Origin: a virus
Lineage: Duplodnaviria > Caudoviricetes
IMG/VR virus record: IMGVR_UViG_3300030389_002537
Coordinates: 1 to 61,719 of that record
Reading direction: 5' to 3' (one strand)
Length of the DNA: 61,719 nt
Shown here: piece by piece, positions 768 to 61,530 of the stretch
Layout of the letters: each line of letters begins with the position of its first letter
Numbering within the stretch: the stretch's first letter is position 1
Translations under genes and position numbers: made by a program
Notes under the pieces: generated by a model
What the model was told of the DNA's origin: nothing
The model's database searches: none
What the model saw: only the letters and a program-made list of their open reading frames with translations

Positions 768-1606
768 TGAGTATGAATAAAGTAAAACTAAGCCAGATTA
801 TACGTGACTTCATCATCACTATGGATGATGATGATTACGTAAGCAATGCATCGGACATAGCTATACGTAACTTTGCGTTGAGGGGTATACGCGAAATAGG
901 TTTTGATCTTGGCAAAAAAATTAGATCTATAAAGTTAACTGTTCAGTCTAACGATACGATTATTTTACCAGATGATTTCGTAGACGTAAGCAAGATAGGA
1001 ATAGTTGGTGCTGACGGAGTTATACGTGCTTTAACAATGAATGGTAATCTAAACTATTCTAGAAAGTATGAGGTGGACTCTAATGGAACTGCAACAAACG
1101 AAACACACGACAGCGAAGAGGGACCGCTTAACATAGAAGCAAACTTCATAAACGACAGACAAGATGATAAAACAGCCACATCAACTGGAGATGTAGATGA
1201 GTTTAATGCTTTTGTGTTCGAAAATTATTTATTTCAGGGAGGTTTTGGTAGGCTGTACGGTGTAGGCGGTGGGTCTGCGCCTGGTGAGTTTAGGATAAAC
1301 CTTGATCAAAACAGAATAGAGATATCTGCTAACTCTGACTTTACTGAGGTTGTTATGGAGTATGTGGCGGATGAAGCTAGATCTACAGACCCAGAGGTTC
1401 ACGTTTACGCAGAAGAAGCTCTAAGATGTTATATATATTATAAACTTGTAGAGCGTAAAGCAAGCGTACCAGCTAATGAAAAGGCGAGAGCGCGTACAGA
1501 ATACTACAATGAGAGAAGAAAAGCAAATGCTAGATTAAGTCACTTTACAAAAGATGAAGCTCTTAAGACAATACGTAAGAACTTCATGCAGGCACCTAAG
1601 TTCTAA
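767..1606 (+). CDS. Putative tail tubular / ring structural protein
   Basis: 279 aa; ILPDDFV and VHVYAEEALRCYI motifs; coupled between adaptor and tail stabilisation genes. Confidence 0.6.
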   Translation: MSMNKVKLSQIIRDFIITMDDDDYVSNASDIAIRNFALRGIREIGFDLGKKIRSIKLTVQSNDTIILPDDFVDVSKIGIVGADGVIRALTMNGNLNYSRKYEVDSNGTATNETHDSEEGPLNIEANFINDRQDDKTATSTGDVDEFNAFVFENYLFQGGFGRLYGVGGGSAPGEFRINLDQNRIEISANSDFTEVVMEYVADEARSTDPEVHVYAEEALRCYIYYKLVERKASVPANEKARARTEYYNERRKANARLSHFTKDEALKTIRKNFMQAPKF

Positions 1607-4600
1607 TGATAGATAAAATTACACCTAGAGCTCTGGATAAAAGTTCAGATTACAGGCTTGTCCCTAAAACAAGCATGATCGATGCGCTTAATGTTTATAT
1701 CACGGATGACGGAGATGGCGCTGAAGGTAATGTAGGCACGTTAAAGAATGTAAGAGGTAATGAATCTGTTGATTATGCGACCCCAGACGATTATCCAACA
1801 GCATCAGAAGACGCTGTTCTTAAAGTTATAGGTAGCGTAACTGACAGTAAAACAAAAATATGTTACTTTTTTGTATGGAGTCAAGTTGCTGAAGATCACG
1901 GCATATGGGCTTATGATAAGTATGGTAAGCTGCCTATATCAAAAACAGAACCTATCGGTATACCAAACTCTTTAAGAAGAGTTTTTACCTCGAATCAATT
2001 CAACTTCCCACAACATGGCTTTGTTAAAGGTGACGTTGTGTATACTAACACAACAGAATTTGAAAAGCATGAAGACATCAGAACTTATTTTGATAACAAT
2101 GAGGGTTTAAAGATAGACTTTGAGAAGGATGCATTATTGTACTTTACAGATAATGTAAACGAACCTAGAAAGATAAACATATACAGGGCGTTACTTGAAA
2201 AAAATGACGCACTTGCAGGCGCTGAATATACAGATGGCAATGAGTTAGAGCTTACTGATTTTATATGTGCATGTCCTAAAGTACCTCTTGATAGAATAAC
2301 TTTTATATTTGATGCTGATTCATCAATATCTACAAACAACTTTGCTGCTTCACCTGGGTTTCAGTTTGCATATCAGCACATATATCAAGACAAAACAGAA
2401 AGCGCTATATCGGTTTACTCAGAAGCAGCATTTCCGCCTTCTATTGTAAACAGAGGTGCAGCTGATGTAAGCGATATATTGGCTCATAACGTATGTATTT
2501 TAAGTATACCTCAAGCTGGTCCAGAAGTAGAAACCATAAGGTTATTAGCGAGATATGGCAACTCAACTAACTTTTTTGAAATAGATGAAGTAGGTAATAA
2601 TGAGTCACTTACAGAAAATTGGGATGTTGATGAAAGGCTTTATAGGTTTTACAATGACAGAGTAGCTTCTGGTGTAAACCCACAAGAAGTAAACAAAACA
2701 TTTGATAATGTACCCCGTAAAGCACAAGCCCAAACAGCTATATCGAACCGCCTCATATACGGAAACTATCTAGAAGGTTTTGACAATATAAATACAGATT
2801 GTGACTCTAGAGTTATATACAACGAAAGACCTCCAGACTATCTAAATCTTACTATAAGCACGCACGCTTCAATAGAGCCTACACCTTACGGAGAAAACAG
2901 GTGTGTGGGTTTTCAGCTTGACACTACAGAGATACCAAATCAAATATCAGAAGGTACTATCGTAAATATAGTTATAGATTATGAACCAGATAAAAACTTT
3001 CATATATACCAAGCGCATGATACTAGCCTAACATATCATCAGTCAAGGCATATGGGTAAGTATTCTGCAAACGCAAGAGGATACAGAAGATACCCCCTTA
3101 AGCAAGACAACTTGATGTACTCTGATAGTGGTGAGGGTCAACCTGGTGCTGATAATGATGGAGATGGAGATTTTCCAGCATATAAGTCTGGAACACAGGC
3201 TTCAAATCAAGAAACTGGTGCAGGATCAAGCGGCGGTTACAGGACTCCAGAGCAATCTGGATCTGTATACTTAGAGGAGCAGGCTCAGAAGTATTTTGGT
3301 AAAAATTTTGGTGTTGGAATAGAAGGGCCTACAGACCCTTCAATATCTCCAGACTCAAACACAAGTGCTTATGATATAAATTTACCAACATGGAGAGCTG
3401 TACAAAATCAACTTGTGCCAGAAATAGAAACAGATCCTAAGGCTGGATTTGGAACAAGCGCTGGAAACCCTCTGATTATAAAAAGTAAGCCTCTTGAGTT
3501 TAGAGTAAGGCTTACGGTTACGCAACCTATAGCGTACAACGGTAGAAAAATTATAGGTACAACTATTACTGAGGCTCTTGCTGGAGCTGATAACGGCTCT
3601 GGAGGGTCACTTACATATGGATACACAGTAAACGTAGATGAAGTTGTAAATGTTGCGAGGATAACAAAAGATGAGTATGACCTTAGCTTAGGGTATGACA
3701 ACTATGAATCTAGTGATTTGACAAATCCTAATTTTACGTTTAAGCAAATAGGCCCAGGAACTGACTACGATAAACTTATTGTAGGTGTAGGGGCAATGAG
3801 AGAAGGTTACGGTGCAGCAGGACAATTTAATACTACTCAACGATTACTTCCTGTTGGGTTCTTTATCATAAACAGAGCAGAGGTTGATTTTTACCTTGAA
3901 CTCGTTGAACCTGATGAGCTTAATCCTGGCGAAAGAGACCACCTAAGGCTGTGTATATCTAAGATAGATATCGATCAAAACGATATAATGACATGTATAA
4001 GGAGACATGACCCTCAATCACCTTGGTGGGTTGTAAGTCCTGAGATTGCATCTGATCCAGCGTTTCAACAATATTGGACATATGGCCTAGGAGATTCATC
4101 TCCTTGGGGTCCATTTTTTCCTTTTTCAGACACCCCAAATCAAACATACGAGGACTCTAATAGTTTTGCGTCAAAGTTTAACATTCCAGACCCTATTTTT
4201 GTACCACGGGGTAGAAAAGATTTTATAATAGGGTTTGATTTAAATGGAGATGGATTAAATTATATAGGTAGTGGTTCATTAGGTGGTATTATTTACCCTA
4301 ACCTTTACTGTTATGGGTATATGGATGTGTCTTCATCTTCGCTGTTTAAATCGCACGCAGAGATATTTGGGGCGGATGAAGAATCTGTAGGTGAGTTTGA
4401 AAATATGTATAAACCAGTTCTCGGTGAGTCTCGTTTTAGATTTAGTCTTATGGATGGTGAAGGTGGGCCAGGTGGCGCTCAAGCTGGTGGAAATTCAGCA
4501 TATGATAATCACATGAATGGTTCGCATGGATCTGTAGCGGCTCAGATATACTTGGATACAGACGAAAGCGATATAAAACTTCATTATTCTATAGGCAATG

Positions 4601-7600
4601 GTAATTGCTACCAGGCATATGTTGGTGGGGTAAGATATGGAGAAGATAGTGCTGATGATTTTGGGGGTCCTTACGCTACAATGAACTCTTCAATTATTAG
4701 TCAATATGGTCTTATGACAGACGAAGAAGCAATTGACGACGGATTAAGTGTTGGAGCAGATGGACAACTACAATTTGGTGATGATTACGCTCGTTTTACA
4801 TATGTTGTAAGCGGTCCGTTCTATACAGGTAGTATAGCTTTAAACCCTATCGTTGGGGCTGACGGATCTAACATACAAGGTAGACCATACCCTCAAGTTA
4901 GAGACTATACAACAACATTACCTTTAATTTGGACCAACACTACAGATGGGGCAAACATAGAGCAAATTACACAGCAGGATTATGGTTTTGGAGATGGTTA
5001 TTATGTTCAGTACAACTGGTTGAAAACATCATTTCCTTGGCCTCAGGTTATGCGTCCACCGCAGGTTCCTGAAAGCTACAGCTGGACATCTAACGGTCAA
5101 ATGAATAGTACCGCTATAGACGGATTGCCTTTCCGTAAAGGTATAGACAATGAAATTAATCCTGATTCAACTGTGGCTGACTCTTATTACAATGGGGATA
5201 ATAACGTAGCAGAAGGGCATAGTGAGTTCGGTTGTGTAGACTTCCGTTTGACGCATTCGCACCTAGAAGGAGGCTCTAGATCTATGTATAGCCCGTCTGG
5301 AGGTTTTGAAAACAATACATCCTTTAAAACCTCTGCTACACACGAGTTTGGGATAGTATATTACGATCAAAGAGGTAGACATGGATATGTAAATTATCTA
5401 GACAGCGTTTACGTAGAAGGTTATAATCCAGGGCGTAGACCTGTAGACGGAAACAATCAAAATAGTCAAGGCTCTGCACACGTTGAACTTACGCTAAAAC
5501 ACGATCCGCCTGAATGGGCTCACAACTATAAAATAGTTTACTCAAAAAACACAAGTTATTCTGACTTTATACAGTATTCTGCGGGTGGTGCGTTTGTGGC
5601 TCAAGGCGAGTCAGCAAGTGGAGACCCGTCTAGAATATACGTTTCTTTAAACTACTTGCAGGGTCATGAAATATCATACTCTGGAGCTTGGGGAGCTAGG
5701 TCTGAAGAAGGAACTCCTGTTATGTACACACCAAAGCAAGGGGATAGATTAAGGGTTATATCGTTTATGCTGGATAATACAAGTGGTTCATCTGTTCCGC
5801 CTCGTGTATATCCTTATAATTATGACTTTGAGGTATCAGATGTTGTAAATTTAGATGATGTAGACAACCCTCTTGCTGAGGGGTATGATGATACTGGAAA
5901 TATTATTCCTGATGAAAATCAAAAAGGATTATTTTTAATACTTAAGAATAACGGTAACGCTACAGGGTTTAGATATCAAGATGTTCGAGATGGCACTCAT
6001 TATTGGGGAGATAACTGTATTATAGAGCTGTATTCTCCACTAAAAGAACTAGATGCAGACGACCGCCTATACTACGAAATAGGTACAACCTATGATGTAT
6101 TTAGAAATAATAATGGAGATCTTGTTCATCAGGGTGATTTCATTAATCAAGAAGGCAACCCTGTTATACTCCTTACAGATGGTGATGTATACTTCAGATC
6201 TCATGCTGTAAATCTTAGAGAATATGATTCATCTCTTGTTGATGGGACGTATATGGGGTATGTAGATATTATCATAAACACAACTGCATATTCTCAAGGT
6301 ACGGACTGGGAAAACTACTCAAGATCTGAGGCTAATTTTAAAAGTTATTATTTAGAATCTCCTGTAGCTACAGATTTATTTAAGTCTGATGCTATACATA
6401 TTGGTAGACCTAATATGATAAAACAGGACGCTCAGGAGTCATACAAAGAGGCTAGTGTTATACACTCAGATAGAGATATTATAGATCACGGTAAAGTGTC
6501 TTATTCTTCTTTCAATAGATCTATACCTATTGACAAAGATTTAGATATGAAGAATGGCGAAATTAACTACCTAGGCAACTGGGATGACAGCTGTTTCTTT
6601 GTCCAGAAAGATAAGTGTGGATATTTTGGCATAGATAGAACTATGATATCAGACCTTAAAGGTGAAAAAAGTCTTATAGCGTCTAGTAAATTTATCAATG
6701 AGCCGCAGTACTACTTAGGTAAAGCAGGGGCTGATGGTAATCCAGAATCCGTTTATGTACTCAACAACTCTGCTTATTTTGCACATAAATCTTTAGGTAA
6801 AGTATTTAAGGCAAGCGGAGGCGGTGCTGGTGTACAGGTTATTTCAGATATAAACATGAGGTCTTGGTTTAAAGATACTTTTGATGCAGCCATGAGCGAG
6901 TCTCAAGTAAATGGTGAAGATGTTAGAGTTGTTGGTGGTTATGACCCAATGAAAGAGGAGTATCTTCTTACTATATTGAGACCTCAGACTTATGAGTTAA
7001 TTACAGATTCTTTTGAACCAACCGTAGACGAACCGCCGCCTCCACCACCTCCACCTCCTGTAGAGGCCCCTGAGTGGGATATATGTAAGTGGTTTAATGG
7101 AACTGAAACTCTTGTTAATATTCAGAATCCTGACTACCCTAGCCCAGATATTGTTCCGTTTACATGGTATGACAACCCATCATATGTAACGGTTGCTGAT
7201 GTAGCTACAGAAATATACGGTGGAGAACCTGGACCATTTACACTTACTGATACTTTAAATCAAGTTGGGTTTGGTAATGTTGCTTTATGGCTAACCTTAG
7301 ATACTGGTGTGTTTACGGATGTATCTCTTCAGTTATTTATAGACACATACTTAACAGAACAAGACGGATCTTTAATAACTCTTGAGTCTCTTGCAGAAAC
7401 TTGCGGGCTTGATTTAGACCCTAATCCAGATCCTGATCCTGATCCAGACCCTGATCCAGATACAGACACAGATGATCCAGAGGATCCAAGACCAGATGAT
7501 GAGCCTGGACCTGTAAAAGACGAAAAAGATAAAAGAAAAGGCAGGGTAAAATATAGTGGAGATGTTAAGTCTGCACAAGACTATGGCGATGTAAAAGAAA

Positions 7601-7854
7601 ATCTATACACTGCTGGTGGAGAGTACTTTTTACCTGACGGTACCGATTACGTAGGTGCTTATCATATACATCCTACGAAAGGAGCTATGGTTGGTGGTAT
7701 GCATATAGAAGAAAAACACGATATTCTTACCCCATATCCACCACTAAAAGCTAAGATACCCGTCGAAACATCTAAATCAAAAAAACAAGAAACAGTAACA
7801 CAAACACGAACTCAAACAACGCCTAGTGGTTCGGGTACATCAGGAGGATATTAA
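1606..7854 (+). CDS. Large tail stabilisation / nozzle protein, N-terminal part
   Basis: 2082 aa; DALNV, LYFTDNVNEPRKINI, NRLIYGNY, FGIVYYDQRGR and VGGYDP motifs typical of this phage group's tail stabilisation protein. Confidence 0.7.
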   Translation: MIDKITPRALDKSSDYRLVPKTSMIDALNVYITDDGDGAEGNVGTLKNVRGNESVDYATPDDYPTASEDAVLKVIGSVTDSKTKICYFFVWSQVAEDHGIWAYDKYGKLPISKTEPIGIPNSLRRVFTSNQFNFPQHGFVKGDVVYTNTTEFEKHEDIRTYFDNNEGLKIDFEKDALLYFTDNVNEPRKINIYRALLEKNDALAGAEYTDGNELELTDFICACPKVPLDRITFIFDADSSISTNNFAASPGFQFAYQHIYQDKTESAISVYSEAAFPPSIVNRGAADVSDILAHNVCILSIPQAGPEVETIRLLARYGNSTNFFEIDEVGNNESLTENWDVDERLYRFYNDRVASGVNPQEVNKTFDNVPRKAQAQTAISNRLIYGNYLEGFDNINTDCDSRVIYNERPPDYLNLTISTHASIEPTPYGENRCVGFQLDTTEIPNQISEGTIVNIVIDYEPDKNFHIYQAHDTSLTYHQSRHMGKYSANARGYRRYPLKQDNLMYSDSGEGQPGADNDGDGDFPAYKSGTQASNQETGAGSSGGYRTPEQSGSVYLEEQAQKYFGKNFGVGIEGPTDPSISPDSNTSAYDINLPTWRAVQNQLVPEIETDPKAGFGTSAGNPLIIKSKPLEFRVRLTVTQPIAYNGRKIIGTTITEALAGADNGSGGSLTYGYTVNVDEVVNVARITKDEYDLSLGYDNYESSDLTNPNFTFKQIGPGTDYDKLIVGVGAMREGYGAAGQFNTTQRLLPVGFFIINRAEVDFYLELVEPDELNPGERDHLRLCISKIDIDQNDIMTCIRRHDPQSPWWVVSPEIASDPAFQQYWTYGLGDSSPWGPFFPFSDTPNQTYEDSNSFASKFNIPDPIFVPRGRKDFIIGFDLNGDGLNYIGSGSLGGIIYPNLYCYGYMDVSSSSLFKSHAEIFGADEESVGEFENMYKPVLGESRFRFSLMDGEGGPGGAQAGGNSAYDNHMNGSHGSVAAQIYLDTDESDIKLHYSIGNGNCYQAYVGGVRYGEDSADDFGGPYATMNSSIISQYGLMTDEEAIDDGLSVGADGQLQFGDDYARFTYVVSGPFYTGSIALNPIVGADGSNIQGRPYPQVRDYTTTLPLIWTNTTDGANIEQITQQDYGFGDGYYVQYNWLKTSFPWPQVMRPPQVPESYSWTSNGQMNSTAIDGLPFRKGIDNEINPDSTVADSYYNGDNNVAEGHSEFGCVDFRLTHSHLEGGSRSMYSPSGGFENNTSFKTSATHEFGIVYYDQRGRHGYVNYLDSVYVEGYNPGRRPVDGNNQNSQGSAHVELTLKHDPPEWAHNYKIVYSKNTSYSDFIQYSAGGAFVAQGESASGDPSRIYVSLNYLQGHEISYSGAWGARSEEGTPVMYTPKQGDRLRVISFMLDNTSGSSVPPRVYPYNYDFEVSDVVNLDDVDNPLAEGYDDTGNIIPDENQKGLFLILKNNGNATGFRYQDVRDGTHYWGDNCIIELYSPLKELDADDRLYYEIGTTYDVFRNNNGDLVHQGDFINQEGNPVILLTDGDVYFRSHAVNLREYDSSLVDGTYMGYVDIIINTTAYSQGTDWENYSRSEANFKSYYLESPVATDLFKSDAIHIGRPNMIKQDAQESYKEASVIHSDRDIIDHGKVSYSSFNRSIPIDKDLDMKNGEINYLGNWDDSCFFVQKDKCGYFGIDRTMISDLKGEKSLIASSKFINEPQYYLGKAGADGNPESVYVLNNSAYFAHKSLGKVFKASGGGAGVQVISDINMRSWFKDTFDAAMSESQVNGEDVRVVGGYDPMKEEYLLTILRPQTYELITDSFEPTVDEPPPPPPPPPVEAPEWDICKWFNGTETLVNIQNPDYPSPDIVPFTWYDNPSYVTVADVATEIYGGEPGPFTLTDTLNQVGFGNVALWLTLDTGVFTDVSLQLFIDTYLTEQDGSLITLESLAETCGLDLDPNPDPDPDPDPDPDTDTDDPEDPRPDDEPGPVKDEKDKRKGRVKYSGDVKSAQDYGDVKENLYTAGGEYFLPDGTDYVGAYHIHPTKGAMVGGMHIEEKHDILTPYPPLKAKIPVETSKSKKQETVTQTRTQTTPSGSGTSGGY
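7411..7500 (+). repeat. Low-complexity (Asp-Pro)n coding repeat
   Basis: GATCC(T/A)/GACCCT hexamer array encoding DLDPNPDPDPDPDPDPDTDTDDPEDP. Confidence 0.85.
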
Positions 7855-7855
7855 T

Positions 7856-8899
7856 ATGTTATACCGAGGAGAAACAGTAGCATTTTCAACAAAAGCAAAT
7901 GTATGGAAAACGAGATACTCGTTTAATCCCACTTGTTATATGGATATGGATAATGATTTTTTATCTAGCGCACCACAAGATGAAGAAGACACTAATCTTG
8001 CTTGGAGACATGATATTGCTACAGGCTACAATACTTTTTACGGATCACTTTATGAATCAATCATAGAGGTTGCCTCAAATCAAAACCCATCTGCTACAAA
8101 AGCATTTAAGGCTGTATCTCTAGAAACAAGCGCTGAAGGCTGGAATTCTATAGTTCGAACTAATATAGATAAAGGGGGCAATACATCTCTTGTACAGGAG
8201 GGAACTATTAGGTCTTTTGATAGCAAAGAAGGGAATCAGTATGCGTCTATGCCTAGAAACTCACAAGGAAACGAGTCTACGTCTAATTTAACATACGTTG
8301 GGAGTGTGACATTAAATGATTTAGTGCCAGGTTATAACTCAGAAAGTGACGTTAGTATAGCAGATCTTGTTGTGCCAGGAACAGCACAGATACAATACGA
8401 GGTACCGCTTCAAAGCATACCTTCAATATCAATAACACCAAGTGAGGCTTCTAAGTTTTATATACCGTCTCCTGCTCAAAACAATCAACTATCTTCATTT
8501 GTTTTTCAGCAAGAGCCAATCCCTCAAGGCAGCTATGAAACAATTTATTCTCTGCAGGGATACAATGTTGACGCTATGTCTATTGTTGGGTATAATTCAG
8601 AGACAAATAGCATAATTTTAGAAACTCCTATACTAAGTATATCACAGTCTGGACAGCAATTAAGTCTAACAGCTTTATTTGCACTTATTGCAGAGTATTC
8701 TAGTGAGGCTGGAGTTACTGAATTTGACTTTGATGCACAAATACCTGTATACATGATGACAGACCCACGTATAAATGGGGATATGATGAGAGGTCCATAT
8801 GCAAACATTAGTATTATTAGGGAGTCTGCATCTCCATTTGAACTATTTTCTATCAACGTAGACTTTGAAAACACTAAGCTTGATGGTAGTTTGGGATAA
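7856..8899 (+). CDS. Tail stabilisation protein, C-terminal part as a separate ORF
   Basis: ATG at 7856, 1 nt after TAA 7854 (track start 7826 is GTG); TVAFS..WKTRYSF, NTFYG, KAFKAVSLE, KEG and GDMMRG motifs. Confidence 0.6.
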   Translation: MLYRGETVAFSTKANVWKTRYSFNPTCYMDMDNDFLSSAPQDEEDTNLAWRHDIATGYNTFYGSLYESIIEVASNQNPSATKAFKAVSLETSAEGWNSIVRTNIDKGGNTSLVQEGTIRSFDSKEGNQYASMPRNSQGNESTSNLTYVGSVTLNDLVPGYNSESDVSIADLVVPGTAQIQYEVPLQSIPSISITPSEASKFYIPSPAQNNQLSSFVFQQEPIPQGSYETIYSLQGYNVDAMSIVGYNSETNSIILETPILSISQSGQQLSLTALFALIAEYSSEAGVTEFDFDAQIPVYMMTDPRINGDMMRGPYANISIIRESASPFELFSINVDFENTKLDGSLG

Positions 8900-8917: not shown

Positions 8918-10144
8918 ATGAGTAACGGAATTACTAATCGATCTACGGGACTTACCTCATTACTGCAAGCTCAGACGTTTGCTAACATGACTCCAGAGCA
9001 GCGTCTTCAGTTTCAGCAACAACAGGCCAAACAACAGAGGTTACAGGCTGGCATACAGGGTGCTGCTGGTATTGCTGATTTTTTTAGTGGTAGAAAAGCG
9101 CAACAAGGTGCAGAGCAAGATATAGAAGCTTTAGGGGCTCAGTCTGATGAGATTAGGCAGAAGATGGAGGATCTTAAGATGCCTAGCGCAACAAGCCCTG
9201 AAGCCGTTGCGGCTGCTGTGCGTAACGCTACGATACTCGGAGCAAGAGCTCCACAGGACGATTCATCAGAGCTTGCCGCTGCTAAAATGGCACTTGAGTC
9301 TGGTGCAGACCCAACAAACGTACAGAGAGCTCTAAGCGAGGCTCAGCAACAAAAAGATGAGGCAGAGAGAGCAGAACAACAAAGCGCATTCCAACAAGGT
9401 CTTGGCATGCAACAGATGGATGCGCAGAGACAGTATGAAAAAGAAATGCAAAGCCTTGGTATGGACTACGAAGATACACAGGCTCAGCTGCAGGCTGCAC
9501 AGCAACAGAGTTTGCTCGGTCAGCAGCAGCAACAACGAGGGCAAGCTGGGTTGCTAGGCGGTGCCATACAGGGTTTTATGCAAAATAAGAGAGTTGGGCA
9601 GTTAGGTGAGCAATTAGCTGCGTTAGACCAAGAAGGAGATGACACTACAACAGTAGACGAAACTACAACAGAAGATCAAACTACAACAGGAGACCAAACT
9701 ACAACAGGAGGATATCAATTTGGGGATTATAGCGGAGGTTTAGGTAATCTCATGGGGCAAGGCCAAGGGGGGTTAAGGCAGGGACTTTTCGGGGGAGCAA
9801 AAAACTATGACGGGAGTACAGATTATGACGGCAATCCACTAACTCGATTTGATGAAGGGGGTAGGAATATAGTACAGAAGACACCAGGTGCGTTTAAGCA
9901 CGACGACGGAGACGGTGTGTACGAAGAAGGTGAAAACGAATTAATACTTATGCAGCAGACAGCAGGGGGTCTTGTGGACACAGGTATACGTCAGACGGGT
10001 GGTGAGTTTGTACTCAACCCAAAACAGGCACAGGCACTGGAGACCGCCTACGATAAGATAAAGTCAAAAAAGAACCCAAGCAAGGCAGATCTTATGTTAC
10101 TATTTAAAGCGGCTAGATTCCTAGATGAACCGCAATTTGATTAA
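8918..10144 (+). CDS. Putative internal virion / ejection protein
   Basis: 408 aa; Gln/Ala-rich coiled coil, Gly-rich hydrophobic segments, FDEGG motif; position after tail genes. Confidence 0.55.
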   Translation: MSNGITNRSTGLTSLLQAQTFANMTPEQRLQFQQQQAKQQRLQAGIQGAAGIADFFSGRKAQQGAEQDIEALGAQSDEIRQKMEDLKMPSATSPEAVAAAVRNATILGARAPQDDSSELAAAKMALESGADPTNVQRALSEAQQQKDEAERAEQQSAFQQGLGMQQMDAQRQYEKEMQSLGMDYEDTQAQLQAAQQQSLLGQQQQQRGQAGLLGGAIQGFMQNKRVGQLGEQLAALDQEGDDTTTVDETTTEDQTTTGDQTTTGGYQFGDYSGGLGNLMGQGQGGLRQGLFGGAKNYDGSTDYDGNPLTRFDEGGRNIVQKTPGAFKHDDGDGVYEEGENELILMQQTAGGLVDTGIRQTGGEFVLNPKQAQALETAYDKIKSKKNPSKADLMLLFKAARFLDEPQFD

Positions 10145-42522: not shown

Positions 42523-42805
42523 GTCTAAATTCACCACGATAGAAGCTGCACAAAGGCTTATGAATAGTATGGAGATCGCTATCAATAACATGATTGACGA
42601 GATCAAAAAACCTGTAGACCCAGAGATAAATGGTAGTGCTCGAAAAGCTGAGCTACAATCTATAAAACAGACAGCGACAGATGCTAAAGAACTTCTTGTT
42701 GAAAGACAAAGATTAGAGCAGATGATAAAGGACTTAAATGAAAGCGGTTCTATAGAACAATCCAAGGATTACTCTGGCGGTTTTGCGGAAAGATTTTCGA
42801 AGTAA
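42515..42805 (+). CDS. Putative terminase small subunit
   Basis: Helical 96 aa ending GFAERFSK; upstream of the large subunit. Confidence 0.45.
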   Translation: MSKSKFTTIEAAQRLMNSMEIAINNMIDEIKKPVDPEINGSARKAELQSIKQTATDAKELLVERQRLEQMIKDLNESGSIEQSKDYSGGFAERFSK

Positions 42806-48036: not shown

Positions 48037-48194
48037 TGAGTATTACAATAAATACATCTACAAGCAGTATGGATATAACAGAGCCTGTTGTAGTGACTAC
48101 AAAAGTTACTGAATCTTCTGTTATAACAACTACAGCTACACATCCTACAAAACTTAATATAGAGGTTACACTTAATTCAAGATCATTAAGATGA
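48036..48194 (+). CDS. Thr-rich 52-aa protein (not in ORF track)
   Basis: MSITINTSTSS...; TAATG and ATGA overlaps at its ends. Confidence 0.55.
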   Translation: MSITINTSTSSMDITEPVVVTTKVTESSVITTTATHPTKLNIEVTLNSRSLR

Positions 48195-51937: not shown

Positions 51938-52272
51938 ATAACTTAATCTACATATGTTTGTTTGCAATTACATCTCTTAGTATGGGTATACCAGATTCAG
52001 GAGTATGTGTTGTTGAGTTTAACGCTAGTTTTAACTCTGCTAACAGTGTAGGTTGGATTGATGAGCTTAGCGACTGTAAAGGCAAGAGGGTAGATATAGC
52101 TGCTGAGCCAGAGCTACAAAAAGAACATAAAATTGTGGTAGTGCCAACTGTAATTATATTTAATGAAGGAGAAGAAGTAAAACGATTTCAAGGCAACATT
52201 ATGATGCAACTTGAGGCAACTCAAGATGAAGTGCAAGAGGCGGTCGATGAAATTATAATGAGTGACTTCTAA
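51934..52272 (+). CDS. Exported thioredoxin-fold protein lacking CXXC
   Basis: Signal-like N-terminus; VVEFNASFN, VDI, IVVVPTVIIFNEGEEVKRFQG. Confidence 0.65.
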   Translation: MNNLIYICLFAITSLSMGIPDSGVCVVEFNASFNSANSVGWIDELSDCKGKRVDIAAEPELQKEHKIVVVPTVIIFNEGEEVKRFQGNIMMQLEATQDEVQEAVDEIIMSDF

Positions 52273-52779: not shown

Positions 52780-52948
52780 GAAGGTAAAGAAAAAGAAAAT
52801 ACGCTATAAAAAAGGCGGTACGGTAAAGGACGCTTGTTACCACAAGGTAAAGCGTGGCGAGAAAGTATTTCCAAGTGCATACGCTAGCGGAAGAATAGCT
52901 AAGTGTAGAAAAATGGGGGCTGCCAATTACGGGAAGAGTAAAAAATAA
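52766..52948 (+). CDS. Small basic phage protein
   Basis: DACYHKVK..FPSAYASG..KCRK motif. Confidence 0.65.
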   Translation: MPRVKKVKKKKIRYKKGGTVKDACYHKVKRGEKVFPSAYASGRIAKCRKMGAANYGKSKK

Positions 52949-53625: not shown

Positions 53626-54044
53626 TGGGTTTACTCCGAGGCGCACTTACATTAACAAGTTCGGATGTGTTAAGCATCCCAATTAACCTTAACGTCGATG
53701 CATCATTTAGTGCAGATGGTGGGTCTATTGGTCGTGCCAAGGTTTTACAAACAGGCGTGCATAACAACGCTTTAGACCTGTATGTTGCAAACGACAAGCT
53801 AATTACGGCTTATCTATATGCTAAGAATCTAGAGACTGAGAAAGAAAACTTTATGTATATCTACAATAACGCTGGCTCAAACGATGTTGTTGCTAAGTTA
53901 GGCGGTGGTGAGTTTTGTTTTATCCCTGTTGCGGCGGATCAAAACTTAAAGTGTTACGGCACAAGAGTAGATAGTATTATTGAATTTGCTGTATTTGGAC
54001 TAGATAGCTCAGCGGCAGGACCATTCATCGGATCAGGAGACTAA
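53625..54044 (+). CDS. Putative structural / decoration protein
   Basis: 139 aa; LTLTSSD, YAKNL and LGGGEFCFIP align with the previous gene. Confidence 0.6.
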   Translation: MGLLRGALTLTSSDVLSIPINLNVDASFSADGGSIGRAKVLQTGVHNNALDLYVANDKLITAYLYAKNLETEKENFMYIYNNAGSNDVVAKLGGGEFCFIPVAADQNLKCYGTRVDSIIEFAVFGLDSSAAGPFIGSGD

Positions 54045-54456: not shown

Positions 54457-55560
54457 ATGGAAAACGCTTCAATAGAAAAAATGGAGATCATGGATACTCC
54501 TGAGCAGCTTGCTGCCTCAATGCAACAAGAACCAACCCCAACAACACAAGAGGCTCCTCAACAGGAGTCTCAACCAGTTGAACAGGTTAATACACCAGAG
54601 GTAACGCCAGAGCCGACACAACAGGCTCAAACGGCACCGCCTCCAACACAAGAAACAACTGCACAACCAGAAACGGTTGAGCAACTACAATACTCAGACG
54701 ATCAGATAGAGACGGCTGTCCTTGACTACATGAGCGAAAGGCTTGGTACGGACATTAATTCTTTTGATGATTTTTATGGGGATGAGCAGGAGCAATCACC
54801 TCTTGACGAGAGAGTTGCGGCGATAGCAGAATTTGTCGAAACGACAGGTAGATCGCCACAAGATTGGTTTAAGTATCAGTCATTAAATCCGTCCGAAATG
54901 AACGATTTAACAGCCGTAAAGGTTGACATGGCTGCAAAGTACCCAAACCTATCAAGCGAAGAAGTAAACTTACTCGTAAAGAATCAGTACAAGTTTGACA
55001 CCGAAACACACGGTGCTGAGCAGGTACAACTATCGCAACTGCAACTTAAAATAGATGCTGAGAATGCACGTAAAAACATTTCGGAGATTCGTGAAAAATA
55101 CAAAGCTCCAAATGTGCAGGCTCCAGCAGATTCATTTATTACCGACGACTGGGTTAACGAAATGACTGACGAGGTTAACGATTTGACTGGATTGCAATTC
55201 GATCTAGGCAATGACAAAACCTTTACGTTTACGATTGACGATAACTACAAGTCTGAGTTAATAGATAAAAATACAAGATTAGAGGAATACTTTGATCCAT
55301 TTGTGCGCCAGGATGGTACATGGGACTTTGATGCACTCTCATCGCATAGAGCCGTTGTTGACAACATCGACCAAATCGTAAGCGCAGCTTACAGACAAGG
55401 TGTAGGTGATGGTCAGAAAGGCTTAGTTGAGAAAGCAGCCAATGTATCAACCGCTTCTCCACAACAGGGTACAAACTCGACACCGAGTGCAAATCCACTG
55501 GCGGAGCAGGTGAAGCAGATTATGAGTCAAAATTCTTCTAAGATGACTTTTAAACTATAA
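54457..55560 (+). CDS. Putative capsid scaffolding protein
   Basis: Acidic, with a Q/E/P/T low-complexity N-terminus; immediately upstream of the major capsid gene. Confidence 0.6.
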   Translation: MENASIEKMEIMDTPEQLAASMQQEPTPTTQEAPQQESQPVEQVNTPEVTPEPTQQAQTAPPPTQETTAQPETVEQLQYSDDQIETAVLDYMSERLGTDINSFDDFYGDEQEQSPLDERVAAIAEFVETTGRSPQDWFKYQSLNPSEMNDLTAVKVDMAAKYPNLSSEEVNLLVKNQYKFDTETHGAEQVQLSQLQLKIDAENARKNISEIREKYKAPNVQAPADSFITDDWVNEMTDEVNDLTGLQFDLGNDKTFTFTIDDNYKSELIDKNTRLEEYFDPFVRQDGTWDFDALSSHRAVVDNIDQIVSAAYRQGVGDGQKGLVEKAANVSTASPQQGTNSTPSANPLAEQVKQIMSQNSSKMTFKL

Positions 55561-55575: not shown

Positions 55576-57009
55576 ATGGCTACTATACCAAGTACAACTG
55601 TTGATATAGCAGGACATGAGATCTTAACGAGCCCGCAAAAATATGCGGCTATCGGTGATCTTTTGAACGCTGCTGCATCAGGAGTTAATGAAGTCGGTAA
55701 ACCCGACGTAAGTGATATGCTGGTTGAAACATACGGAGACCAAGGTATCACTGGATTTTTAAAGATGACAGGAGCAATCACTGCTGCTGGATCTTCTGAC
55801 CAAGTAGAATTCTACGAAGTTGGTCGTCGTCACAAAGTGTTAGCTTACGGAAGCAACATTAACATTGCTTCTAACGAAATTAACCTGCCTCAAGCAGACT
55901 TAACATACGTTACAGGAGCATCAGGCGCTGTATCAACTCCAACAGGAGCTGTACTAGAGGCTGGTGATATCGTAATGGATAAAGTTACAGGTGTACGTTT
56001 AATCCTTAAGGACTTTAATACTACAGCTGCTAACGACTACACATTCATTCGTTTAGATGGTGAAAACGCTTCAGGTACTAATGAAGTTGACACATCTTCT
56101 GGTGGTGAGTTTATCCACATCGGTAACATGTTCGCTCAGGGAACTGATCAACCTACAAACTTTATCCAACCAGATGTTATCCGTAGAATCAATTCTTACG
56201 CTATTGTAAAGGATCGTTTCGAGGTTGCTGGATCTCAAGCTACAAACGTAGGGTATGTAAACATTGGAAACGGTGACTACCGTTGGTTTATGTACGGAGA
56301 GATGGAAGCACGTAAGCGCTTTATGGACCGTCGTGAGATGACTCTTCTATTCGGTGAGTTAAACGATGGATCTAATGACTTTGGTGGTGCAGGATCTGAG
56401 GGTTACATTACAGCTCTTGAGTCTCGTGGTATCCAAATCACAAATGCTAACTCTAACCCAATGGATAGCTTCTCTGAGTTTGATGATCTTATTCTTGAGC
56501 TTGATAAGCAGGGAGCGCCTTCTGAGTACGCTATGTACTTAAACAGAAAGCAGGATCTTGCTATCGATGACATGCTAGCTACTGGTATCGCTACTGGTGT
56601 TACTGCAGGTCTTCCTGGTCAGTTTGGTGCATTCAATAACGATTCTGATATGGCTGTAAAGCTTGGCTTTAAGTCGTTCACTCGTGCTGGATACACATTC
56701 CACAAGCATGACTGGAAGCTTCTTAACGATCCTACTCTTGTTGGTGCTTCTACTAAGTTCCAGGGTGTTATGGTACCTCTTGCTAACGTAGCTGACGCTC
56801 GTTCAGGCATGAAGTCACCAGCTCTTGAGATGAAGTACAAGGCTGCTAACGGGTACTCTCGTGAAATGGAGCACTGGGTAACAGGCGGTGGTGTGTTAGG
56901 TCACACAAACAATGGAGGTACAGGTAAGGACGTTGCTACGTTCCACTACCGTTCTGAAGTTTGTTTATTAACTCGTGCTGCTAACCAACACGTTCTTCTT
57001 AAGGGTTAA
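55576..57009 (+). CDS. Major capsid protein
   Basis: 477 aa; high-expression codon bias (CGT, GGT, TTC, AAC); LGFKSF..YTFHKHDWKLLND and HYRSE motifs. Confidence 0.85.
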   Translation: MATIPSTTVDIAGHEILTSPQKYAAIGDLLNAAASGVNEVGKPDVSDMLVETYGDQGITGFLKMTGAITAAGSSDQVEFYEVGRRHKVLAYGSNINIASNEINLPQADLTYVTGASGAVSTPTGAVLEAGDIVMDKVTGVRLILKDFNTTAANDYTFIRLDGENASGTNEVDTSSGGEFIHIGNMFAQGTDQPTNFIQPDVIRRINSYAIVKDRFEVAGSQATNVGYVNIGNGDYRWFMYGEMEARKRFMDRREMTLLFGELNDGSNDFGGAGSEGYITALESRGIQITNANSNPMDSFSEFDDLILELDKQGAPSEYAMYLNRKQDLAIDDMLATGIATGVTAGLPGQFGAFNNDSDMAVKLGFKSFTRAGYTFHKHDWKLLNDPTLVGASTKFQGVMVPLANVADARSGMKSPALEMKYKAANGYSREMEHWVTGGGVLGHTNNGGTGKDVATFHYRSEVCLLTRAANQHVLLKG

Positions 57010-57044: not shown

Positions 57045-57518
57045 ATGGCTACATTCAAATACGGACCAGGAGCAGTTACAGCTGCAAAAAGAGTTACAGC
57101 AACAGATGTATTTACTCAAAATGCTGACGGCGCAATCATAGAAGTTACCCAGCCTGCTGGAACAATTCTAAGAGAAGTTATCGTTAGGTTTACAAATACA
57201 TCTACGCATGGATCTTCTAGTCAAGTAGGCTACGAGCTAGGAACCGCTTCAAGTGGTGCTCAGCTCGGAACCAACGTCGACGGATTTCTTGATGCGGGCA
57301 CTTCAATACCTGAAAATACAGTATACTTACTGAATACAGGTACGGGAAATGCTGCTGCTGATTTTCTTTCAGAAAGCGAAGTGGATACAACTCCAGCTGC
57401 TGCAGTAGGATATACAGACGATGAAAGAAGTATATTCTTGACTTTTTTACACAGCGATCACGCTGTTACTGTTAACTCAAATGTTGAGGTAAACTTTGTG
57501 TTTACTCATCTGAACTAA
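57045..57518 (+). CDS. Putative capsid decoration protein
   Basis: 157 aa between the capsid gene and its terminator; QPAGTIL motif. Confidence 0.55.
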   Translation: MATFKYGPGAVTAAKRVTATDVFTQNADGAIIEVTQPAGTILREVIVRFTNTSTHGSSSQVGYELGTASSGAQLGTNVDGFLDAGTSIPENTVYLLNTGTGNAAADFLSESEVDTTPAAAVGYTDDERSIFLTFLHSDHAVTVNSNVEVNFVFTHLN

Positions 57519-57899: not shown

Positions 57900-58735
57900 T
57901 GGCTATTGATTCAAATAAAAAATTCTTATACTTCAACAAAGATTCTACATCTGGTGAAATGGATGAATCTTTATGTTTTCCTGTGTCTAGTTTTATAGGC
58001 GCTGAAACTCAGACCGCTTCTATAATTGACTTATATTTTAAAGGCTCTAAAAGTGTTGACGCAACGCAAGTAAGAGTTACTATAGATACTGGTTTTATCA
58101 ATATAAAGAATTTTTATAAAAAATTAGTTGATCAAATTAACTTTGGTGAACTAGCGTTTATAAAAGTAATGGATTACGCAGAGAGGCATACTCATCTGTC
58201 TGACGTAACTTTTGCAATGGTTGATAATATTGCACCTACATTTACTTTACAAGACAACATTCTTCTTGCGGACTCAATTACTGTTACTAACGATACAGTT
58301 ACAGATTCTTTAAGAGCTACTTCAAGAAATATTCCAGTAACTCATTTATACGGATCATCAGCTGGATCTCATGAAGGAGATATAATATTTCTCGGTAGTA
58401 CATCTACAACTGCAGGTAAATTATACCACTATAAATCAGATGGCACATGGGAGGAGGCTGATGCTGACTCAGCTTCTACATGTGATGGTCTGTTAGCTGT
58501 TGCTTTAGGGCTTAATTCTGCAACACATGGTATGCTACTAAGAGGCACGGTTACATTAAATCACGACCCAGGAGCATTAGGCGACGTATTGTTTGTATCT
58601 ACAACAGCTGGCGAGATAACAGCAACTGCTCCTTCTGGTTCTGGGGACATAGTGCGAATTGTTGGGTATTGTTTACACGCAACAGGTGGGCAGATATGGT
58701 TTAACCCAGACGGAGCGTTTGTAGAAGTAGCGTAA
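57899..58735 (+). CDS. Putative fibre / spike protein
   Basis: C-terminal WEEADAD..LAVAL..GDVLFVS..GEITATAPSGSGDIVRIVGY domain. Confidence 0.55.
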   Translation: MAIDSNKKFLYFNKDSTSGEMDESLCFPVSSFIGAETQTASIIDLYFKGSKSVDATQVRVTIDTGFINIKNFYKKLVDQINFGELAFIKVMDYAERHTHLSDVTFAMVDNIAPTFTLQDNILLADSITVTNDTVTDSLRATSRNIPVTHLYGSSAGSHEGDIIFLGSTSTTAGKLYHYKSDGTWEEADADSASTCDGLLAVALGLNSATHGMLLRGTVTLNHDPGALGDVLFVSTTAGEITATAPSGSGDIVRIVGYCLHATGGQIWFNPDGAFVEVA

Positions 58736-59316
58736 TGCCATCAGTATTATTAAGACCAAACGCAGAGATTAGTTCAGGTAACTTTGCTAATGAATCTGGA
58801 AGTGGATTTGATGTTGCTAAAATAAACGATCAAAATAATAGCACGTATGTTTATAACACATCTGCAAACCAAAGTTTTGTAGTTGGATTAGATGATACAA
58901 GTGGTTTAGCTGGGGCTACGTTTGATAATTTTGTTGTTATAGCAGTAATGCAAAAACATGGAGCAAGAGGTGCTGACGCTAGTTTTGAAGTTGATATAGG
59001 TGATAGTTCATCAGCAACAACATTTGGTAGTATATCCGATGCAACATTTGTTACAACAAACTTTAGTCCTACGACTAGAATTGCAACTGCAATAAACTTT
59101 GCGGGTGGCGTTTCTGCTAGTGATGTAGACGATATGAGACTTTCAATTACTGGAACTGACCTCACTCAATTTAGACTTTTTGAATTATCTGTACAGATTA
59201 ATTATACGGCAGCAAGCGGTTATGGACAAAATGTAAATACTGTAGCAGCTGCTAACATAGGTAAGATTAACACAGTAGCCACTGCTAATGTAGGCAAAGT
59301 CAACACGGTTGATTAA
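58735..59316 (+). CDS. Putative structural protein
   Basis: Beta-rich; C-terminal (V/I)NTVAxAN(I/V)GK repeats. Confidence 0.55.
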   Translation: MPSVLLRPNAEISSGNFANESGSGFDVAKINDQNNSTYVYNTSANQSFVVGLDDTSGLAGATFDNFVVIAVMQKHGARGADASFEVDIGDSSSATTFGSISDATFVTTNFSPTTRIATAINFAGGVSASDVDDMRLSITGTDLTQFRLFELSVQINYTAASGYGQNVNTVAAANIGKINTVATANVGKVNTVD

Positions 59317-59320
59317 TTAG

Positions 59321-59328: not shown

Positions 59329-59332
59329 CAAC

Positions 59333-60697
59333 ATGACCAGAAAGTTTTTTTTGTTCCGTAGATCAGATCCAGTAGGTCCAGTTAAAAGGGTTTCTGAAAA
59401 CGGTAAAGATATACCGATTCTTGCTGTACCTGCAGATAAGATAGCATTTGTTTCAGCAGGTAAAGGTGAAATCAACATAACTTTTAATGACGCTGGTGTA
59501 TACGAAGATAATGAAATGCTTGCTGGGGACTCTATTGAAAAAACAAATATAACCATAGCTTGTGCGGTTGGTCAAGAAATGTTAATAATTGAAAAAATAT
59601 TAATATTTGCAGGTAGCACAGAAGGTAAGCCGATTATGAAGTTTGATGTTCTTGAAAGTTCGTCACCAATATCTGAGGTTGTTTTAGAAAATGTATCTAA
59701 TTTAACAACAAAAATTAAATCTCAACCTACAGAACGTGTTACACAAAAGGTAAGCACAGGTGATTCAGCTACTAGATTCTTAAATGTTATAGGCGAAATA
59801 AATTTTGGTAGTAGAGAGAACAGACCTTTTGTAGATTATAACCACGAAAGCATGTATCCTGTAGATAATACAGATATTGTAGCTGTAGGTGCAGCTCAAT
59901 GGAAAAATGCAGGAACGGGAGGTGCTGCATACGATATAACATCAGGAACTGGATCTGTAACCACACAAACTGAAGCCACAGCTGCTGATGTTGGGCTTGG
60001 TCAAATATGTGCTCAATTCGCATCCAACTCATTCCTAGATGTGCCAGACATTACAGTTAAAGACGACTACACTATGTATTTTGTTATAGGTGATGCAGGC
60101 TCTGGGACAGGCGGTGAAGGATTTGGCGTGTTGTTTGGCGATGATGCTGGAGAAACGACAGGTTTTTCTACAGCTGGAGCTTCTAGCTCTTTTTCTATGA
60201 GACATGATGGATTGCTAGGTCATCCATTTAAAGTAAAAACAAACACATCTACAAGCGGTACGGAAGCTTATTCTTTTCCCGATCCATCATCAATAGCATC
60301 TATAGGCGAAAGACAGTTTTGTTACTCGTTTGTCATCAGAAGAGACAAAGACTTTAATTTGTATCTTTACAACTTTGAAGGCGAAGTAGTTGCATTTGCA
60401 CCAGCGTTTACAGTGAAATCTAAATCTAAGCCTGATTTTAAAGAAGTAGGATCAAAATATAAAATATTAGACACAAGTAAAATAAAAAATAGACTAAGAG
60501 CAAAAGTTACAGAGGGAACTGGAGGTAGAACTGATGGAAACTTATTCATACAGCAGCTTGGTAGTTCTGGAGGTAACGTAACAAATAGCTTTGCAGGTAC
60601 TCTAGGTAGATTCGGTGTAATAACGCGAGATATTGGTGAGGCAAATTGTTCTAAATTAGCACAAGATTTGTACGAGTTGTACAAACCGACAACATAA
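59333..60697 (+). CDS. Structural protein with C-terminal LamG-like domain
   Basis: QWKNAG, YTMYFV, FVIRRD..LYLY and FAGTLGRFGV motifs. Confidence 0.55.
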   Translation: MTRKFFLFRRSDPVGPVKRVSENGKDIPILAVPADKIAFVSAGKGEINITFNDAGVYEDNEMLAGDSIEKTNITIACAVGQEMLIIEKILIFAGSTEGKPIMKFDVLESSSPISEVVLENVSNLTTKIKSQPTERVTQKVSTGDSATRFLNVIGEINFGSRENRPFVDYNHESMYPVDNTDIVAVGAAQWKNAGTGGAAYDITSGTGSVTTQTEATAADVGLGQICAQFASNSFLDVPDITVKDDYTMYFVIGDAGSGTGGEGFGVLFGDDAGETTGFSTAGASSSFSMRHDGLLGHPFKVKTNTSTSGTEAYSFPDPSSIASIGERQFCYSFVIRRDKDFNLYLYNFEGEVVAFAPAFTVKSKSKPDFKEVGSKYKILDTSKIKNRLRAKVTEGTGGRTDGNLFIQQLGSSGGNVTNSFAGTLGRFGVITRDIGEANCSKLAQDLYELYKPTT

Positions 60698-60714
60698 ATT
60701 AAATTTAATACATA

Positions 60715-61530
60715 ATGACAAAAGCAAAAGTGGCAGCTGAGGCCCCAAAAGCTCAGCCCGTACAGGCACCGCCTGCACAAAAGAAAAAGCGCGGTATCAA
60801 GCGCCAAGAAAAAGTTTTACAGCATTCTGAATACGAAATACCTAATCGAGCTGGTATTGTATTTATGCTACCTCAAAAAGGTGTAACTATATACGACTCA
60901 GAAAAAGACACGGTAAGAGAAATTAGATACTGTCCCAACGAGCCGTCTATATATACTGATGAGCAAAGCGACAAAGCTCTTAGACAGAGTGTTGCCTTTA
61001 GAGATGGTAGATTGTTTGTACGTAAAGATCAACCAAATTTAAGATCTTTTTTAGATACACACCCTATGAATATGGCGAATGGTGGTCAGATATTTAGAAG
61101 AGTTGACAAGAAATCAGAAGCTGAAGCTGAACTTAAAAGAGAGTTTGCTTTATCCGAGGCTGTATCTATAGTAAGGGATAAGGAGATAAACGATCTACTA
61201 CCTATAGCTATGTATTTCAAAGTAGACATTAACAAGCCTGTGTCTGAAATAAGATACGACTTACTTAACATAGCTAAAAAGAAAACAAAAGAATTTATGG
61301 AGGCATTTGATTCTCCACAGGTTCAGGTAAGATCTACTATTCAGCAAGCTGCTGATTATCAAATTATAAAAATAAAACAAGACGGATGTTATTGGTTTGA
61401 TGCTAATACTCTTATTGTTGCAAACCCAGTGGGTCAGAACACCATAGACACTATGGTTAGGTTCTGCTTAACTGAAAAAGGAGCATCTGTGCTATCTAGT
61501 TTAGAAGAAAGACTAGACAAGTTAGCATAA
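60715..61530 (+). CDS. Conserved morphogenesis-region protein
   Basis: REIRYCPNEPSIY.DEQ and FRDGRLFV..L..FL..HP motifs. Confidence 0.65.
   Translation: MTKAKVAAEAPKAQPVQAPPAQKKKRGIKRQEKVLQHSEYEIPNRAGIVFMLPQKGVTIYDSEKDTVREIRYCPNEPSIYTDEQSDKALRQSVAFRDGRLFVRKDQPNLRSFLDTHPMNMANGGQIFRRVDKKSEAEAELKREFALSEAVSIVRDKEINDLLPIAMYFKVDINKPVSEIRYDLLNIAKKKTKEFMEAFDSPQVQVRSTIQQAADYQIIKIKQDGCYWFDANTLIVANPVGQNTIDTMVRFCLTEKGASVLSSLEERLDKLA

Follow-up and report, generated by a model that had tools for sequence, protein, structure and literature searches.

ACCGCYT, a heptamer selected at the DNA level in the genome of an uncultivated marine phage, as a possible Chi-type word

Introduction

The enrichment of a cis-acting word in a phage genome is a known kind of phenomenon, and the closest described cases are phages rich in the Chi word of their host. 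P1 contains 50 Chi in 94.8 kb (one per 1.90 kb), located on both strands with 31 on the top one; Chi outnumbers every other octamer of P1 and its density rises toward the ends (bioRxiv 10.1101/2021.07.08.451572). In LLS, 23 Chi (one per 1.86 kb) gather at one end with an orientation of 20:3, and the orientation is 32:0 in the Pseudomonas phage MD8 (PMC12315714). In the available text of the latter source, Chi-rich lambdoids typically have no Rec module and Chi content is patchy among relatives, the sites being proposed to come and go via module shuffling. The present work concerns the heptamer ACCGCCT (AGGCGGT on the other strand) and its variant ACCGCTT in the virus record IMGVR_UViG_3300030389_002537 (Duplodnaviria; Caudoviricetes). 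The window analysed is the complete record, a phage genome of 61,719 bp (called G000), thus the word is genome-wide in the literal sense, as a preliminary description made from the sequence had put it. The excess of the word is real and statistically very strong; its explanation as a Chi-type word is tentative.

In the available text of bioRxiv 10.1101/2021.07.08.451572, the Chi words of AddAB nucleases are GAAGCGG in S. aureus, AGCGG in B. subtilis and GCGCGTG in L. lactis; the first two, quoted in the preliminary description, are thus confirmed in print. The word of L. lactis is unrelated to the others and AddAB words are therefore not conserved in general. AddAB of B. fragilis is functional, its Chi being stated as unknown in the available part of PMC2887965. 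Literature searches found nothing on Chi in Bacteroidetes, nothing relevant on over-represented heptamers in flavobacterial phages, and no report joining ACCGCYT with a phage or a motif.

An excess of ACCGCCT independent of codons and peptides

ACCGCCT has 39 exact copies in the window, i.e., those listed in the preliminary description and no further ones. Twenty are on the + strand (2747-2753, 6062-6068, 10043-10049, 14578-14584, 16342-16348, 20944-20950, 22465-22471, 23797-23803, 24674-24680, 24797-24803, 26957-26963, 28064-28070, 30734-30740, 36680-36686, 37444-37450, 44548-44554, 46114-46120, 51103-51109, 54636-54642 and 60768-60774) and 19 on the - strand (1264-1270, 6819-6825, 9556-9562, 12406-12412, 18284-18290, 18965-18971, 23975-23981, 26672-26678, 29296-29302, 35515-35521, 35810-35816, 36554-36560, 46601-46607, 48871-48877, 52238-52244, 52813-52819, 53900-53906, 56883-56889 and 60109-60115), leading to a density of one per 1.58 kb. 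The G+C content obtained from base counts is 39.5%, within the 38-40% estimated by eye beforehand. The strong excess over chance claimed at that stage is also found here: 100 dinucleotide-preserving shuffles gave 2.36 +/- 1.48 copies with a maximum of 6, none of them reaching 39, and the Markov expectation is 2.7 (first-order) or 7.8 (third-order). ACCGCCT is the most over-represented 7-mer of the genome (z 21.9); a one-step variant of it ranks next, and the next unrelated word has a z of about 9.

The unit is a fully specified 7-mer, since replacing the letter at either end leaves only 2-6 copies, while 39 of the 49 ACCGCC are followed by T and 39 of the 50 CCGCCT are preceded by A. A longer motif was ruled out: the 15 bases on each side of the sites are not conserved and there is no dominant 8-mer in G000.

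All but one of the sites (38/39) are localized in open reading frames (ORFs), the sole copy outside being that at 35515-35521 (-). When codons were shuffled synonymously within each gene, i.e., with the protein and the codon usage of the gene fixed, 5.67 +/- 2.37 copies were obtained (maximum 15 in 1000 shuffles) vs. 38 observed; codon permutation gave 4.08 +/- 1.95. Even a very conservative shuffle, in which neighbouring nucleotides are also fixed, gave 21.4 +/- 2.9, the observed value still having a z of 5.7. The different reading frames noticed at first (D-R-L with CGC, T-A, P-P, G-G and E-A-V) are all present. The six frames are all enriched beyond the prediction from codon usage, some of them via rare codons: X-G-G is realised in 17 of 108 possible contexts (2.97 expected), [N/D/H]-R-L in 7 of 15 through the rare CGC codon (0.25 expected), X-P-P in 6 of 26 through CCG (0.50 expected) and T-A-X in 3 of 24 (0.11 expected). 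An artefact of codons or dipeptides is thus ruled out, since the excess survives the shuffles and no frame lacks enrichment. The excess reflects selection on DNA and not on protein, in agreement with the selected DNA signal that had been proposed, for which a host Chi mimic, a site for a primase, a protective modification or the binding of a protein had been considered.

ACCGCTT, also noticed as frequent in the preliminary description, has 25 copies in the window vs. 4.29 +/- 1.84 expected; 23 are in coding sequence, vs. 6.33 +/- 2.38 after synonymous shuffling. They are localized on the + strand at 1123-1129, 8404-8410, 12590-12596, 17727-17733, 24071-24077, 25620-25626, 27261-27267, 31910-31916, 34080-34086, 39809-39815, 41234-41240, 49718-49724, 55450-55456, 57243-57249 and 58013-58019, and on the - strand at 4809-4815, 11406-11412, 14324-14330, 15101-15107, 35005-35011, 35323-35329, 42742-42748, 44181-44187, 59214-59220 and 60253-60259. 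The reversed control word is flat in coding sequence (3 vs. 3.58). ACCGTCT and ACCACCT have an apparent excess under a simple Markov model, which is accounted for by codon usage; after codon control only ACCGCTT, and weakly ACCGCAT, remain enriched. The selected word is thus ACCGCYT, i.e., ARGCGGT on the other strand. Since ACCGCTT sites sit in the gaps between ACCGCCT sites (G000, P<0.0002), both variants act as one set of 64 sites.

Spacing and strand distribution of the sites

The top strand has 35 of the 64 sites and the bottom strand 29, with 8, 11, 13, 11, 8 and 10 sites per successive 10 kb. Gaps have a mean of 947 bp, a coefficient of variation (CV) of 0.62 and a maximum of 2365 bp. 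This regularity was matched neither by 5000 random placements nor by 356 control 6- or 7-mers of similar frequency. Taken separately, the strands have spacings of 1.8 kb (35 sites) and 2.1 kb (29 sites) and gap CVs of 0.55 (top, P<0.0005) and 0.76 (bottom, P = 0.09). It must be noticed that the regularity is individually significant in G000 only: for the four remaining strong positives, the CV of a strand falls below the random mean in 7 of 8 cases (combined p=0.006), none being individually striking. Recently imported segments would raise clustering, not regularity. The spacing thus favours selection on coverage and disfavours a purely mutational origin.

The sites show no polarity relative to gene blocks, the sense strand having 36 ARGCGGT and 25 ACCGCYT (p = 0.20), and strand orientation is alike in the left and right halves of the genome (Fisher p=0.45). 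A strand skew of the KOPS or AIMS type is thus not observed, either overall (35:29) or on the sense strand. No pair of sites in opposite orientation lies within 60 nt, i.e., the sites are neither palindromic nor paired.

Distribution of the word among related phages

The phage family comprises at least 599 IMG/VR contigs, from which a comparison set of 26 whole or partial genomes, G000 included, was used. Among the loci of at least 8 kb carrying the large terminase (TerL), 9 of 49 are clearly enriched for the word. The enrichment in ACCGCYT is 8.9x for G000, 8.0x for G001, 7.7x for G009, 7.3x for G027, 4.9x for G004, 4.6x for G008 and 3.4x for G021; it ranges from 0.5x to 2.9x in the remaining 19 of the 26 genomes.

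Motif-negative relatives use other codons for the same peptides. At same-peptide positions orthologous to sites of G000, the word is present in 0/10 (G002), 0/7 (G003) and 1/10 (G005) cases, and in 3/8 and 6/8 for the positives G004 and G001. Nucleotide alignments were also used to compare the identity at sites with the background 7-mer identity in the same blocks; the rows of these alignments share the sites of G000 and are hence not independent. For the six negatives considered, 10 of 133 aligned sites match G000 exactly vs. 27.1 expected (P = 5.5e-5), while for the six closest positives the figure is 42 of 119 vs. 29.5 expected (P = 0.005), 49 of the 119 being still a motif. The sites are thus derived in the positive lineage, identity being below background in negatives and above it in positives. 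The conservation in relatives that the preliminary description had proposed as a test therefore holds in part: positives keep the sites somewhat above background, and negatives do not. Among positives the sites turn over, being retained only modestly and replaced elsewhere. The building of sites takes varied substitution types, including double changes (AGA to CGC).

G021 combines motif-rich segments with motif-poor ones in a mosaic (L174-L177 vs. L214-L217). Its structural block of about 19 kb, 88-90% identical to the negative contigs G025 and G026, has 4 sites in both, and its other sites are in segments unmatched in these two contigs.

Unrelated phages were rejected as carriers of the word. 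Of 80 loci sharing the ribonucleotide reductase (RNR) of G000, 64 were at least 9 kb and were analysed; only those of G009, G008 and G004 are strongly enriched, and none of the 16 loci that share no more than one further gene with G000 exceeds 2.5x. Cultured relatives were likewise rejected, on the basis of ACCGCCT in the first 50 kb of each: 3 vs. 0.74 expected in elemoA, 3 vs. 2.39 in phi38:1 and 7 vs. 2.20 in MW202828.

Other words were noticed in some relatives. GACGGTA is one-stranded in G002 (12:1) and G010 (10:1) and is thus probably codon-driven; it was not retained as an analogue there. Weaker excesses on two strands are those of GACGGTA in G005 (L095-L097; 19 vs. 3.0, 8:11) and of AGTCGGT in G017 (L167-L169; 21 vs. 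5.4, 10:11). The member of an AGNCGGT family that is favoured may vary between lineages. MW202828.1 (L102, 1-50000) has a repeated word of its own, CGTTAACG, with 22 copies vs. 0.6 expected, within words of the type AACGACAC; it is a different repeated element.

Phage genes and the occurrence of the word

In the window, 74 ORFs were called, covering together 94% of the genome; a scan with family profiles took in 45 of them, among which all ORFs of at least 190 aa. Two genes belong to clades that co-segregate with the trait, i.e., with the presence of the word: a primase-helicase with a BT4734-like AEP domain and DnaB_C (24518-26332, -) and the class II RNR (21385-23277, -). The primase tree unites G000, G009, G008 and G004 in a monophyletic group (support 1.0), and the RNR tree does so for these four together with G001 (support 0.999). 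Positives are split by the TerL and portal trees into at least three groups interleaved with negatives.

Two small genes were considered as determinants of the trait and rejected. The first codes for a 100-aa early protein with the precomputed Pfam label PF26096 (32528-32830, -). With genes of G000 as queries, it was found in 5/5 covered positives and 0/15 negatives of the first 21 genomes. The contigs found through this gene are mostly flat (whole-record counts: 7 vs. 5 for G023, 4 vs. 6 for G024, 5 vs. 4 for G025, 4 vs. 3 for G026 and 19 vs. 5 for G027), thus the gene is not sufficient. It is clustered in the flat G023-G025; the match in G026 comprises residues 1-51 only, at the contig end. 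The second is a Pyr_excise-like gene (29173-29643), for which the carriers G019 and G025 are counter-examples. An unbiased clustering of the 1721 ORFs from the 26 genomes gave no cluster that tracks the trait.

ACCGCYT as a possible Chi-type word

By analogy with the phages cited above, the explanation preferred here, to which somewhat less than an even chance is given, is that ACCGCYT may be a Chi-type word for the AddAB nuclease of the host. We infer both AddAB as the reader and a marine Bacteroidota as the host. In one lineage of uncultivated marine podophages, selection has placed the word within coding sequence about once per kb, with a very even coverage of the two strands. The likely reader would be a host helicase-nuclease of AddAB type; from whichever free double-strand end it entered (ends of the injected genome, tails of concatemers, breaks made by restriction or CRISPR), it would soon reach a correctly oriented copy and there switch from degradation to RecA loading. 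The switch would protect the phage DNA or channel it into recombination-dependent replication.

Several properties are shared with described cases. ACCGCYT is a short (within 5-8 nt) asymmetric word, enriched beyond base, codon and peptide composition. As in P1, LLS and MD8, the word is the most frequent k-mer with near-variants next, occurs about once per 1.6-1.9 kb, is not explained by codon usage, and is patchy and module-mosaic among relatives. The strand distribution (35:29, with no left/right difference in orientation) resembles that of P1 (31:19) and would suit a phage whose ends may lie on either side; LLS and MD8 differ in this respect, with their 20:3 and 32:0. Moreover, the minor variant AAGCGGT contains AGCGG of B. 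subtilis, GAAGCGG of S. aureus is contained in the favoured 8-mer of G004, GAAGCGGT (13 copies), and both the length (5-7 nt) and the asymmetry match those of Firmicute AddAB words. However, the major variant AGGCGGT has G where these words have A. It must be noticed also that the words of P1, LLS and MD8 are experimentally known Chi of their hosts, while ACCGCYT is a candidate, drawn from the genome of a marine podovirus-like phage with no integrase among the ORFs scanned.

A number of observations weigh against a Chi-type word. The likeness to the Chi of Firmicutes was noticed after the fact, and the coverage is even in G000 while sites are end-weighted in P1, LLS and MD8. Unlike Chi-rich lambdoids, G000 has a Rec-type module, namely a PDDEXK exonuclease (DUF3799, exonuclease VIII-like; 27191-27952, -) and a neighbouring 174-aa protein (27949-28473, -), which is probably a divergent annealing protein of ERF type. 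This module does not explain the difference in the word, since motif-negative relatives share it (in G002 the exonuclease is 94% identical). No comparable substitute word was found in 15 negatives by a k-mer scan of 21 genomes, and the search for an inhibitor-like gene specific to negatives turned up nothing beyond an M15 endolysin, an M43 peptidase and one structural protein. Bacterial sequences show no comparable excess either: word vs. control is 872 vs. 1095 and 951 vs. 556 in the proteobacterial metagenome-assembled genomes (MAGs) with related contigs (G006 and G007), at or below control in eight relatives of G007, and 67 vs. 117, 26 vs. 57 and 65 vs. 100 in three Bacteroidales plasmids, none of these being a credible host. 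Finally, the trait follows one replication-module clade, i.e., effectively one evolutionary event. A reader encoded by the phage predicts such a link more directly than host AddAB, and a host shift or a change in a phage protein would each yield the clade pattern.

The phage-encoded reader that comes to mind is the primase-helicase itself, which could need or prefer ACCGCYT on the template for lagging-strand primers or for loading; selection would then keep a copy every 1-2 kb per strand, and a phage devoid of polymerase would prime with a long, rare word. The spacing per strand given above, significantly regular on the top strand, is on the scale of Okazaki fragments. Like sites of the T7 (GTC-type) or NrS-1 primases, the word would be read on single strands of the template and needed repeatedly along both of them. 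In addition, the four strong positives with the primase on their contig form a single primase clade while TerL and portal place them in at least three, and no match to a DNA polymerase family was obtained in the ORFs scanned, so that the primase-helicase would be the main replication enzyme, the phage appearing to rely on it and on a host polymerase. The length of the word is the main difficulty. T7 primase recognises a core of 3-4 nt, and such general priming words need no enrichment, while all 7 positions are specified here. The AEP primase of NrS-1 does recognise an 8-nt word, 5'-TTTGGTTA-3', together with GTG; in the available text of PMC8718748, this word is proposed for origin-specific initiation, GTG for general restarts, and known lagging-strand primases use cores of 3-4 nt. 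The primase of the positive clade is set apart from the 17 others by just 7 scattered positions and not by any indel; G021 has motif-rich segments with a primase of negative type (75% identity); a signal restricted to the lagging strand should be polar in simple models, and no polarity is observed; the clade association counts as one event. No genome-wide selected 7-mer tied to a primase was found in the literature. A primase or replisome word is quite improbable. If it were true, it would be the first sequence preference of a replisome enzyme visibly sculpting the synonymous sites of a whole genome, i.e., a novel mode of genome shaping by a replication enzyme. Another sequence-specific factor of phage or host origin, which would profit from many and well-spread sites (a protein of DNA compaction or partition, an accessory of packaging, or a protective modification of bases), is unlikely as well, although the full specification of the 7-mer with a single degenerate position, its strand symmetry and its even coverage would fit a protein that decorates the genome throughout, and several small genes of the replication module and early region have no assignable function. 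No gene cluster tracks the trait, the best two candidates having counter-examples (G023-G025 for one, G019 and G025 for the other), and a dimeric binder is unlikely since the sites are neither palindromic nor paired. As for modification, no methyltransferase or modification enzyme was matched in the ORFs scanned, and the word is enriched and not avoided, in contrast with CCGG (see below), as would not be the case for a restriction target.

A non-adaptive origin, i.e., a bias of mutation or repair or a copy of host oligonucleotide usage without function in the phage, is very improbable. Phage genomes often drift toward the word usage of their host, and a simple Markov model gives an apparent enrichment of words that differ from it by a transition; on the other hand, this last enrichment is reduced to ACCGCTT, and weakly ACCGCAT, by codon control, the sites need different substitution types with double changes such as AGA to CGC, and a mutational bias cannot give a spacing more regular than that of every control word. 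A 9- to 14-fold excess confined to one 7-mer far exceeds the biases known to arise from repair. A word resembling the DNA uptake sequences of a naturally competent host is scarcely credible. The statistics resemble those of uptake signal sequences (USS) and DNA uptake sequences (DUS), which occur about once per kb, on both strands and in all reading frames, G000 sites being likewise mostly in genes, and the USS cores of Pasteurellaceae end in GCGGT. USS and DUS, however, belong to competent bacteria and often form inverted pairs in terminators, whereas inverted pairs within 60 nt are absent from this phage genome; a phage of virulent type gains nothing obvious from uptake signals, and marine metagenome labels and Bacteroidota markers do not fit Pasteurellaceae.

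If ACCGCYT is indeed a Chi-type word, ARGCGGT would be the first candidate Chi for the AddAB of marine Bacteroidota, obtained from a phage genome; the Chi-rich strategy would extend from temperate phages of enterobacteria and pseudomonads to abundant marine podophages, with an added rule, i.e., an even coverage of both strands instead of clustering at the ends. In any case, this family is a natural experiment, in which close relatives with the word, without it, and mosaics allow selection on synonymous sites to be measured.

Gene content and likely host

Besides the genes mentioned above, the profile scan identified in the window a large terminase, a portal protein, a virion structural protein, a protein with a crAss-type muzzle C-terminal domain (7826-8899, +), a 2900-aa protein with an LPD38 polyvalent-protein domain (11868-20570, +) and a 734-aa protein with a C-terminal sorting domain (Por_Secre_tail) of the type IX secretion system (T9SS) (48191-50395, +). 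A PADLOC scan of 10 early or replication proteins gave no match. The 100-aa protein is without known function and has 81 close clusters in marine metagenomes; for this protein and the 174-aa one, PDB profile searches yielded nothing usable.

The annealing role proposed for the 174-aa protein, beside the exonuclease, follows from its family, of which 2 of 17 members match Pfam ERF at 4e-42, and from G018 and G020, in which clear members of the ERF family, with about 30% identity to it, take the place of the gene (L178:8559-9176 and L194:2665-3279). An hhalign comparison of the 174-aa protein with the ERF protein of elemoA gave no match.

Lysis genes are swapped within the family (39428-39949, + in the window vs. 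L164:8777-9277, -). An M15 peptidase endolysin is found in 10 of 16 full motif-negative genomes and in none of 5 strong positives; a DUF5675 protein is found instead in 4/4 full-length positives, 3/3 partial positive contigs and 5 of the 16 full negatives.

The host is, by reasonable inference, a marine Bacteroidota, probably of the Flavobacteriia, and the Flavobacteriales host suggested in the preliminary description is plausible on indirect grounds. The T9SS sorting domain, the crAss muzzle domain and the BT4734-type primase all point to Bacteroidota. The nearest cultured phages have a TerL identity of about 41%. In the TerL search, 86 of 92 matching records are phages of Flavobacterium (68), Cellulophaga (15), Tenacibaculum (2) and Maribacter (1), and every cultured relative with a named host genus, in TerL and portal searches, infects Flavobacteriaceae. 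The closest deposited relative is MW202828.1, a podovirus from a freshwater spring (TerL 48%). Among the matches listed, the sequencing runs that contain the phage are labelled marine, seawater or estuary metagenome only, with no isolate. A search of genome contigs with TerL gave two contigs of the family (L098 and L099), in MAGs labelled Parvibaculum sp. and Gammaproteobacteria bacterium; both placements are probably binning errors, since these genomes have no excess of the word.

Other word biases

CCGG is absent (0 copies) from each of the 26 genomes (1.40 Mb), about 61 being expected in G000 alone. G000 is also devoid of AACGTT (0 vs. 14.1), CTCGAG (0 vs. 7.8) and GACGTC (0 vs. 5.7), and GGCC is depleted (34 vs. 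93). The absence of CCGG and the related depletions are classical restriction-site avoidance, common to motif-positive and motif-negative phages.

The palindrome GGTATACC has 7 copies in the window (about 0.55 expected per strand), all inside genes, at 1957, 11982, 13272, 22460, 44891, 51226 and 51985. GTATAC has 37 copies vs. 16.2 expected in the window; several relatives are instead strongly enriched in GTATATA (27 vs. 2.3 in G012).

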